Shown: piece after piece, positions 31,521-45,163 of the stretch
How positions within the stretch are numbered: position 1 is the stretch's first letter
Layout of the letters: every line of letters begins with the position of its first letter
Source: Candidatus Thorarchaeota archaeon
GTDB lineage: Archaea > Asgardarchaeota > Thorarchaeia > Thorarchaeales > Thorarchaeaceae
Direction of reading: 5' to 3'
Assembly: GCA_016839445.1 (NCBI GenBank)
Contig: JAEOUG010000100.1
Coordinates: forward strand, 1 to 62,415
DNA length: 62,415 bases
Made by a program: the position numbers and the translations under genes
The notes under the pieces: generated by a model
What the model was told of the DNA's origin: nothing
What the model saw: the letters and a program-made list of their open reading frames with translations, nothing else
The model's database searches: none

Positions 31521-31587
31521 TGCGGCAGTGATGAGCTCCCTTTGTGATTGTGAACAGATGATCGGTCTGGTGAGCATCTGAGCCGCA
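31521..31587 (+). ncRNA. Box C/D methylation-guide sRNA candidate
   Basis: TGCGGC-A-GTGATGA (C box 31528-34); degenerate D' GTGA and C' ATGATCG; D box CTGA 31578-81; then GCCGCA, a perfect 6-bp K-turn closing stem; pyrimidine tract after; intergenic. Confidence 0.8.
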
Positions 31588-43389: not shown

Positions 43390-44241
43390 TCATGGTTTTC
43401 TCAGCCTCTCGTGCACCTTCCGGAGGAGGTCGATTCTCTGCGCAGGAACCGTTACCTCTCCCATTTGAGCATGTGATGGGTCTCCATGATAGTCACTGCC
43501 CCCAGTCTCGATAAGTCCTAGCTTCTCTGCTGCGGAGCGCAGCGATTCAAGTGATCCATGTGTAGCCACATTACCATAGTCGTATTCCACCTCGACCCCC
43601 TCAAGTCCGTGAGCACGGAGACCTGAGAGGAGCTCGAAGTGATCCGCCTCCGCGATCATGAGGGGGTGGGCTATTACCGGGACCGCTGCCATATCCATGA
43701 GGAGACGTATCGCCTCCACCGTGTCAATCCTCTCCTTGGGAACGTAGGCAGGTCTTCCTCTGGCAAGGAATCTATCAAACGCCTCTTGCGTATCTTCAAC
43801 AACACCCTTGTCCACTAGGATTCTGGCCAGATGAGGTCTTCCGGGCGACTTCACACCCCGCAGTTCTTCGTCAATGTCGGATTCTGCGATTTCGATTCCC
43901 ATGGTGTTCAGTCTTCTGACCATTCTTGGGAATCTCTCCCTCCGTATCTTCCCCACTCCACGCAGACGGTTTCTGAGTGAGGAGGGCCCCCAGCTGACGA
44001 AATAGCCTAAGAGATGAATCTCAAGTCCTCTGTATTCGGTGCTGATCTCAACTCCTGGCACTCGCTGGAGTGGTTCTGGCGCATCGCAGCTGAGGAATTC
44101 CTCATTCCCGTCGAGGACATCATGATCGGTAAGGGCTATCCCTCCCAGCCCCATCCCCGCTGCGCGCTTTACGAGCCTTTCCGGAGATTCGAGGCCATCA
44201 GAGACGTTAGAGTGAAGATGCAGGTCAGCACGGTCCTTCAC
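43390..44241 (-). CDS. PHP-domain phosphoesterase (YciV/TrpH-like)
   Basis: DLHLHSNVSDG, TDHD, GRPHLA, AHP, GGSDYHG. Confidence 0.9.
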   Translation of the reverse strand: MKDRADLHLHSNVSDGLESPERLVKRAAGMGLGGIALTDHDVLDGNEEFLSCDAPEPLQRVPGVEISTEYRGLEIHLLGYFVSWGPSSLRNRLRGVGKIRRERFPRMVRRLNTMGIEIAESDIDEELRGVKSPGRPHLARILVDKGVVEDTQEAFDRFLARGRPAYVPKERIDTVEAIRLLMDMAAVPVIAHPLMIAEADHFELLSGLRAHGLEGVEVEYDYGNVATHGSLESLRSAAEKLGLIETGGSDYHGDPSHAQMGEVTVPAQRIDLLRKVHERLRKP

Positions 44242-44641
44242 GAGTTGCAGCCTCCTGTTGTAGTTTCTCTATGAGTCTTCTGACCCTGTGACAGACGCCT
44301 CTAATCTCGTCTCTACTCACCGTGCTTCTTGAAGGGCAGTCCCCATCAGTCACGCATTTTCTCTTCTTGGCGTGATAGACGATTGGGTAGTATCTGCACC
44401 CCTCTGGACGATGCTCGTATATCCTGCAAAGTTTGGATTCAGTGTCATAGAAATAGCAGAATCCATCCACGTTCCTCAGCTCACAGAACCCATCCTCCTC
44501 CCGCACAAGGTACTCACTTCGGGAGTATCCCAATGAGTCAATGCGCTCTGCATCTTCTCTCGTCAGGGTCATTTCGGTCTCTGCGCAGCAGAGTCTAACA
44601 TCATCGCAGGAGCCGTCATGGTTGCAGATGAACGGGGTCAA
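44225..44641 (-). CDS. YkgJ family cysteine-cluster protein
   Basis: CC...CYFYD..SKLCRIYEHRPEGCRYYP. Confidence 0.85.
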   Translation of the reverse strand: MTPFICNHDGSCDDVRLCCAETEMTLTREDAERIDSLGYSRSEYLVREEDGFCELRNVDGFCYFYDTESKLCRIYEHRPEGCRYYPIVYHAKKRKCVTDGDCPSRSTVSRDEIRGVCHRVRRLIEKLQQEAATREGPC

Positions 44642-44675: not shown

Positions 44676-44751
44676 ATCGGTCAGATTGCGGTTTATTGGG
44701 TCATCACGATGATGAGTCGCTCTCCATCCCTGCTGTCATCATCATCCCGAT
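44676..44751 (-). ncRNA. Box C/D methylation-guide sRNA candidate
   Basis: Minus strand ATCGG-G-ATGATGA (C), GTGATGA (C'), 16-nt guide, CTGA (D), then CCGAT; perfect 5-bp K-turn stem; TATATA about 25 nt upstream (44775-80). Confidence 0.8.
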
Positions 44752-44845
44752 GCTCCGCATTGGCCGCTGACCGCTATATACCGTTTGTTGTACACTCTCT
44801 ACGATTTTCGCATGTTATTATAGTAAGTTGCGACCTTCTCTGCTC

Positions 44846-45163
44846 ATGTCATCTCCAAGAATGGAAATAGAAAAGGCGCGAGACACTGTGTCAAGGAACA
44901 TCTTGACAATCCTGGCGACTCTCAAGTGCGATGAGTCTGTGAAGGGAGAGTCAATGAAGCTACTGGAGGCGTCCGCTGAAGCCGGCCTTCTCACAGCAAC
45001 GGGGCCAGAAGGACAGGCAGCAGGTATTGTCTATGTTTCGTGTATTCTGGCCAGGAAACGTTTGAGTCAAGCAGTGATAGGAAGGGCTGCTGGGGTGTCT
45101 TCAGGCGTTGTGGGCAAGAACTACATCAGAATTGCCCGTGGCCTAGGCTATGGTGAGCGCTAG
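44846..45163 (+). CDS. Stand-alone TFB/TFIIB cyclin-repeat protein
   Basis: PEGQAAGIVYVSC...SQAVIGRAAGVSSGVVGKNY resembles the TFB C-terminal repeat; no Zn ribbon. Confidence 0.65.
   Translation: MSSPRMEIEKARDTVSRNILTILATLKCDESVKGESMKLLEASAEAGLLTATGPEGQAAGIVYVSCILARKRLSQAVIGRAAGVSSGVVGKNYIRIARGLGYGER

Follow-up and report, generated by a model that had tools for sequence, protein, structure and literature searches.

A predicted dual-guide box C/D sRNA gene, restricted to one archaeal family, upstream of a ykgJ-like gene in Candidatus Thorarchaeota

The intergenic space in front of a ykgJ-like gene in a Candidatus Thorarchaeota archaeon contains a segment with the look of a box C/D guide RNA (44751-44676, minus strand), which raises the questions of whether this is a genuine RNA gene and at which RNA its guides are aimed. 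The window, that is, the whole stretch of DNA analysed here, comprises 62,415 nucleotides (contig JAEOUG010000100.1). A sequence-only reading of the window had placed a minus-strand box C/D guide RNA here, and its terminal stem and boxes C, C', and D were all found there. At the level of sequence, we found a box C of the RUGAUGA type near the 5' end, a CUGA near the 3' end, a terminal stem, complementarity to rRNA, and, elsewhere in the genome, the protein genes of the class. The motifs, their conservation, the covariation of the stem, the complementarity, and the presence of the protein genes are direct observations. We consider it highly probable (roughly 0.85) that the element is a genuine, uncatalogued, and family-restricted gene of ~76 nt for a dual-guide archaeal box C/D sRNA, its transcription being predicted, and the RNA is most likely to direct sugar methylation of 16S rRNA, as predicted from its guides. 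It is a further example of a well-known RNA class and represents no new system or mechanism.

Read 5' to 3' on the minus strand, the element begins with AUCGG (44751-44747), the 5' strand of the terminal stem, whose partner CCGAU (44680-44676) closes the RNA. After one G at 44746 follows box C, AUGAUGA (44745-44739), which stands in the same register in all 43 aligned sequences; a second, overlapping AUGAUGA register is missing from several relatives. The D' guide spacer UGACAGCAGGGAUG (44738-44725), with its conserved core AGCAGGGAUG at 44734-44725, is followed by a degenerate box D', GAGA (44724-44721; columns 31-34 of alignment A1), and by the D'-C' linker GCGACUCAUCAUC (44720-44708), which includes an "anti-box" UCAUCAUC at 44715-44708. 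Box C' was originally read as GUGAUGA (44707-44701), and the comparative data favor an alternative, 3'-shifted register, AUGACCC (44704-44698). The D guide spacer CCCAAUAAACCGCAAU (44700-44685) holds the invariant core UAAACCGCAA (44695-44686) and runs into box D, CUGA (44684-44681). The two guide complements written out in the sequence-only reading are the correct reverse complements of both spacers; that description makes no mention of the degeneracy of box D'.

Alignment A1 and the covariance model R1 were made from 43 distinct copies of the element. The 5-bp terminal stem covaries: 89.3% of its cells are paired in the 43 sequences, vs. 7-39% when the partner strand is slid, and 16 double-sided changes were counted, vs. 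5.1 +/- 1.8 in shuffled alignments, none of 500 shuffles reaching 16. RNAalifold, run on the alignment, returned only the terminal stem and one C/D contact. Boxes C and D, which had been called perfect together with C', are indeed found in 43/43 sequences, and a C' motif is present, but conservation favors a C' register 3 nt downstream of the one first chosen; the second GA of C' survives in 41 of the 43 sequences, compared with only 33 for the first. The spacer between C and D' is 13 nt long in 25/43 sequences (range 10-16), and that between C' and D is 16 nt long in 33/43 in the GUGAUGA register and 13 nt in the shifted register, the canonical length being 12; with the shifted register both spacers are thus ~13 nt and near canonical. 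Box D', GAGA in the window, is GUGA in most relatives (22/43). The two sequences that lack the GA of D' (GUUA) are the same two in which the otherwise invariant GA of C' has become GG, and this correlated change further supports the assignment of D'. The D'-C' linker measures 13-16 nt, which is long relative to typical kink-loop linkers.

A strict regular expression for the order C...C'...D gave 3 matches in the 2.9-Mb genome and 0, 0, and 0 in block-shuffled genomes; two of the three matches are overlapping registers of the sRNA itself, and the third lies at another place. A looser scan with a required terminal stem gave 5 matches vs. 0, 1, and 0 in the shuffles. An Rfam search of the window at gathering score returned two tRNAs and no C/D family, the best sub-threshold scores being those of snoZ105 (20.8 bits, cut-off 45) and sR34 (16.4 bits, cut-off 40).

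The distribution of the element was searched with a 131-nt query centered on it against 36 other genomes of the same family, 28 of which gave matches with E <= 3e-9. The matched span always ran from query position 38-48 to 112-120, which is the RNA proper, and the flanks were unconserved; in the other 8 family genomes and in 24 genomes belonging to 17 other families, all matches were short, with E >= 0.007. This sharp-edged conservation spans at least 10 genera, and one-base insertions and deletions inside the conserved block of the aligned relatives exclude a coding reading. A second draw from the family contained the element in 22 of 40 genomes. With R1, whose search filters were stricter than those of the 131-nt query, 15 of the 26 family genomes searched yielded one copy each, and 124 genomes from 26 further families of the phylum yielded none, absence from draft genomes being no proof in such counts. 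Some of the 11 family genomes in which the sRNA was not found are near-complete and have kept ykgJ, which argues that the sRNA is dispensable. At a same-genus genome locus where the sRNA is missing (L210 of G001, ~60-120 nt 5' of ykgJ), the DNA faintly resembles the 3' half of the sRNA (...AUCAUC...AAACCGUAAAAUAACGGAU). As a decayed copy of the sRNA, L210 was rejected, because its local alignment score of 28 is not significant against 20.2 +/- 3.5 in shuffles (maximum 33). Among the matches listed in sequence collections, the same RNA is present on at least 10 named contigs (6 Candidatus Thorarchaeota, 2 Promethearchaeota, and 2 "archaeon"). A scan of the collections with a 16-letter pattern found a correctly spaced box C in 15 of 121 loci among the matches listed, and since the pattern is too short and only these matches enter the count, the scan is uninformative on the total distribution. 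The public sequencing runs that contain the element number 14, all of them DNA metagenomes.

The D spacer bears a clear conservation footprint: its columns 64-71 are identical in 43/43 sequences and columns 63-73 are kept at 38-43/43, five columns on its 5' side vary (kept at 19-40/43), and the conserved tract starts exactly where the duplex with 16S rRNA starts. The spacer core UAAACCGCAA, which occupies positions 2-11 counted from box D, forms 10/10 Watson-Crick pairs with UUGCGGUUUA of 16S rRNA, which is E. coli 949-958 by alignment to E. coli rrsH. Under the fifth-nucleotide rule, the predicted site of 2'-O-methylation is the C that corresponds to E. coli 952. The site is the single best one for the D guide in the 16S and 23S rRNAs of three relatives, and it is identical in 10/10 relatives, two belonging to the same genus, for which the sRNA and a 16S rRNA sequence could both be obtained; 9 of 300 shuffled D guides equaled the match. 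The organism's own 16S gene is split between contigs C6:11-780 (minus strand; model positions 4-825) and C119:1-237 (plus strand; the last ~237 nt), and because the middle is missing from the assembly, the D target was read from relatives. A guide search against the organism's own rRNAs, which the sequence-only reading had named as a check, succeeded in so far as the D' site and a site near 600 were located in its own 16S rRNA, but the part with the D target is unassembled and no 23S gene was found in its own genome assembly.

Two side observations concern the 16S genes of relatives. In several of them, the 16S match is interrupted at model position 828 or extends over 2.3-2.4 kb, pointing to large insertions or introns at that place. 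Among 7 family genomes that have a 16S gene and in which the sRNA was not found, two are altered in the D-target tract (L046 in G070 and L047 in G063, reading UUGCGGCUCA and UUGCGGUUCA); the tract is unchanged in all 10 sRNA-bearing genomes, and these numbers are too small for a conclusion.

The core of the D' guide, AG[U/C]AGGGA, is retained in 34/43 sequences, and its U/C variation faces a G of the target, so that pairing is kept either way. In the window, AGCAGGGAUG pairs with CGUCCCUGCU of the organism's own 16S rRNA (contig C119 from base 83; E. coli 1378-1387) over 10 bp with one G-U, a match that is within chance (70/300 shuffled guides reach it). The consensus D' guide forms 12 bp (2 G-U) with 16S 1378-1389, which 7/300 shuffles reach. 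The D' guide most likely pairs here and would predict methylation of C1382, plus or minus 1 by D' register, the window's own match being weak alone. A second D' site at E. coli 597-605, in the organism's own C6 fragment, involves the same 8-nt core and is one bp shorter, and it ties with the 1380 site in one genus; we favor the 1380 site over that near 600 as the putative D' target at about even odds. The D' core has been swapped for unrelated sequence at five loci (L032, L192, L153, L154, and L195), genome G014 has a D' mismatch beside the predicted target nucleotide, and a search with the D' spacer of the G028 type yielded no target of more than 8 bp.

The 16S genes of two relatives carry 30-nt, hairpin-forming insertions between the nucleotides that correspond to E. 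coli 1386 and 1387 (L044 in G030, roughly at base 1359 of the gene; L052 in G029), and these insertions fall inside the predicted D' target. A different 30-nt insertion is located near the 3' end of the 16S gene of G078 (L040). Possibly, the 30-nt insertions are rRNA mini-introns, in which case the D' guide of those species would reach across the splice junction.

A TATATA sequence at promoter distance from the element had been pointed out beforehand and was confirmed (44780-44775, minus strand), 24 nt 5' of the first stem nucleotide. Among 29 sequences, counting that of the window, 28 have a TATA-like A/T-rich hexamer that begins 26-31 nt 5' of the stem, by a motif list that was picked after the sequences had been inspected, and a purine-rich GAAAG precedes the hexamer in most relatives. 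From this distance, transcription would be expected to start near the first stem base, and the box is the probable promoter of the sRNA and perhaps also that of the downstream operon. The ykgJ-like gene (44225-44641, minus strand), recognized by Pfam matches to a CxxCxxCC domain, heads a ykgJ-PHP-amidohydrolase-Mut7-C run. In 40 of 41 loci of relatives, ykgJ follows the sRNA on the same strand at a distance of 23-134 nt, and the PHP gene comes next; the gap to ykgJ is often ~25 nt with an AGGAG-like motif between. With only ~25 nt between RNA and start codon in many genomes, the sRNA and ykgJ probably share one promoter, and co-transcription with the YkgJ-PHP-amidohydrolase-Mut7-C run is plausible from this gene arrangement. 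On the other side, the ABCE1 gene diverges upstream and starts ~450-540 nt upstream of the sRNA in many relatives. In the window, a 111-aa open reading frame (44828-45163, plus strand) diverges from the promoter region of the sRNA and matches the TFIIB repeat at 20.7 bits, below the cut-off of 23.6.

The host genome (190 contigs, 89.8% complete) encodes the proteins of a box C/D RNP: fibrillarin (C29:5564-6229, 302 bits), its neighbor Nop5 (C29:4752-5426, 216 bits), and an L7Ae-family protein (C7:5713-5991, 94 bits). The window holds a second box C/D candidate at 31528-31581 (plus strand), presumably the "guide RNA 1" of the sequence-only reading, with a 6-bp stem (GCGGCA/GCCGC), a box C GUGAUGA, and a box D CUGA; it shows 76-81% identity in 15 of 18 same-genus genomes, and its C-proximal spacer forms 12 bp (2 G-U) with a same-genus 23S rRNA near 2094.

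The linker contains UCAUC in 29/43 sequences and AUCA in 37/43. In the minimum-free-energy fold of the naked RNA, the anti-box UCAUCAUC pairs with box C and buries it in a helix, and the energy of this fold (-16.1 kcal/mol) is no better than that of shuffles (z = 0.20). It had been suggested that an internal UCAUCAU can pair with either C or C'; the pairing with box C does appear in the minimum-free-energy fold, but covariation supports pairing with neither box. There are zero double-sided changes between the anti-box and box C across the 43 sequences, since box C is invariant, and the 4 cells counted between the anti-box and C' are reached by 47 of 500 shuffles. The anti-box may perhaps represent an alternative fold that L7Ae must open.

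Other explanations of the locus have to be weighed against a dual-guide sRNA gene. We give next to no credence to a chance coincidence of motifs in an intergenic spacer that holds no functional RNA: the lacking Rfam match and the unremarkable fold energy would agree with it, whereas the absence of the strict pattern from shuffled genomes, the sharp-edged conservation, the covariation of the stem, and the coincidence of the guide footprint with the 16S duplex all speak against it. It is also very improbable that the two targets named in the sequence-only reading, 16S near 560 and 23S near 2515 close to the peptidyl transferase center, are those of the guides. All that favors the former is a 6-nt identity, UUAUUG, but the organism's own 16S rRNA near 560 reads CAAUUAUUGAGCUUAAAGCG and has only these six letters in common with the variable part of the spacer; with the organism's own 5' 16S fragment, the D spacer pairs at best over 7 bp including a G-U, and the complement UUAUUGGG derives from spacer positions that drift among relatives. 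All that favors the latter is a CAUCC-like string in the complement of the D' spacer, but the sole CAUCCUG of a same-genus 23S rRNA is located at ~1034, where it pairs poorly with the guide of the window and draws on bases that relatives have changed or lost, and in the 23S rRNAs of three relatives no site equals the 16S sites. Pairing of the D' region together with box D' to UCACCAUCCU of 23S rRNA near 1030 (10 bp with the consensus, a mismatch in the window) was rejected as well, because it relies on those variable or deleted bases. No complementarity longer than 7 bp was found to the 19 tRNAs predicted by aragorn, a set that is probably incomplete.

The remaining explanations accept the RNA and differ in what it does. 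We are inclined to doubt, while granting it some likelihood, that the RNP is an rRNA-folding chaperone only, or that the RNA is a single guide in which D works and D' is decaying or aimed elsewhere, so that one site, or none, would be methylated via D'. The D' core is less well conserved than the D core (34/43 vs. 43/43), it is replaced at the five loci and mismatched in G014, box D' is degenerate, the window's D' match is within chance, and chaperone roles have been proposed for long-range dual guides (PMC4644070). On the other hand, the 12-bp match of the consensus D' guide is of canonical length and seldom reached by shuffles, the U/C variation opposite a target G preserves pairing, and the correlated change of D' and C' suggests selection on the internal kink-loop. 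More improbable to our mind is a mainly cis-acting role as a 5' leader in the ykgJ-PHP-amidohydrolase-Mut7-C mRNA, with which a guide role would be compatible; here, L7Ae or the whole sRNP on the kink-turn, or a hairpin of box C with the anti-box, would control translation or stability of the downstream message. The short distance to ykgJ in nearly all loci leaves scant room for a separate promoter where the gap is ~25 nt, the conserved UCAUC pairs with box C in the predicted fold of the free RNA, archaeal mRNA leaders are reported to be bound by L7Ae (PMC5539422), and sRNA genes adjoining or 5' of ORFs are known in archaea and lower downstream expression (PMC7994747). Yet a purely cis-acting role leaves unexplained why an invariant 11-nt tract with exact complementarity to 16S rRNA stands beside drifting spacer bases; five family genomes that lack the sRNA retain ykgJ, and the operon is thus independent of the sRNA; the anti-box pairing shows no covariation; and synteny inside one family may be mere inheritance. 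The stricter proposal, that the RNA is an obligatory 5' leader of this operon in which the naked leader hides box C through the UCAUC hairpin and assembly of L7Ae, Nop5, and fibrillarin switches the fold, strikes us as decidedly improbable. If it were true, ribosome-biogenesis capacity would be coupled to the expression of the downstream genes, and the nuclease-like products (Mut7-C RNase, PHP phosphoesterase) might in return trim the 3' end of the sRNA.

For the dual-guide sRNA, which remains the reading we prefer, we propose the following course of events, modeled on the known members of the class. A BRE/TATA promoter would drive the sRNA from a start at or next to the first terminal-stem nucleotide. 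L7Ae would bind the kink-turn made of box C, box D, and the 5-bp stem, as well as the internal C'/D' kink-loop, and a Nop5 dimer with two fibrillarins would complete the RNP. Lying on UUGCGGUUUA of 16S rRNA, the D guide would set the equivalent of C952 in the active site of fibrillarin for 2'-O-methylation; the D' core AGCAGGGAUG, lying on 16S 1378-1387, would in the same way have C1382, plus or minus 1, methylated. It is possible that both guides together bridge distant strands of the 16S 3' domain, one in helix 30 (5' strand) and one in helix 28 (3' strand); these helix assignments follow Dennis et al., 2015 (PMC4644070). The RNP would then join strands of two 16S helices (h30 and h28), and in two relatives it would do so across the site of a 30-nt rRNA insertion.

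Two concrete positions in the head and neck of 16S rRNA (the equivalents of E. coli 952 and 1382) are predicted as methylation sites, and neither appears in the accessible part of the supplement to the pan-archaeal catalog (PMC4644070). R1 is usable for annotating this sRNA in Thorarchaeota genomes. The family also displays guide turnover: the D guide stays fixed, the D' guide drifts, and many related genomes lack the RNA.

The closest parallels are the archaeal dual-guide C/D sRNAs, such as the sR families of Sulfolobus, Pyrococcus, and Pyrobaculum (PMC7994747; PMC4644070). Shared with these are boxes C and D with a short stem, putative internal C' and D' boxes, two spacers that would measure ~13 nt (with the shifted C'), an rRNA match of 10-12 bp with the target at the fifth position, the presence of the core protein genes, and a gene that abuts a protein-coding gene. 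The Thorarchaeal RNA differs in that it has no relative in Rfam, is confined to part of one family in a mesophilic Asgard lineage, and combines a long 13-16-nt linker bearing the UCAUC anti-box with a degenerate D'. A full-text search of the literature returned no description of C/D sRNAs in Asgard archaea.

Both predicted targets lie in or beside 16S stretches to which guides of other archaea are predicted to be directed (PMC4644070). In the 1380 stretch, sR17 and sR19 of Nanoarchaeum equitans and sR56 of Ignicoccus hospitalis have predicted targets, with guides of the GCAGGGAC or GAGCAGGAAC type against the same 16S stretch ACGUCCCUGCUCC, and N. equitans sR17 is a long-range dual guide that was proposed to be a folding chaperone of helix 28 (PMC4644070). 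The nucleotides predicted to be methylated in their case are U1367 and U1371 in the numbering of that study, in which the Thorarchaeal target would be C1369 by our conversion, and the accessible part of the supplement has no entry at C1368-1370; their partner guide is aimed elsewhere, and outside the guide they share no sequence homology with the Thorarchaeal RNA. Similarly, sR15 of N. equitans, sR56 and sR57 of Pyrobaculum calidifontis, and sR46 of Thermoproteus tenax are directed to helix 30, on its 5' strand and the flank 5' of it (G923-G930; PMC4644070), 5-12 nt upstream of the predicted Thorarchaeal C, with different guides and different nucleotides; at C934-936, a numbering conversion that is possibly off by one, the accessible supplement has no entry.

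Eukaryotic box C/D snoRNAs have in common with the Thorarchaeal RNA the box architecture, the fifth-nucleotide rule, and the homologs of fibrillarin, Nop56-58, and Snu13. Yeast and human 18S rRNAs are not known to carry a 2'-O-methyl group at the nucleotides that correspond to E. coli 952 or 1382. In contrast to the eukaryotic snoRNAs, the Thorarchaeal RNA is of archaeal size and symmetry and has a predicted archaeal promoter, and its host is an Asgard archaeon.
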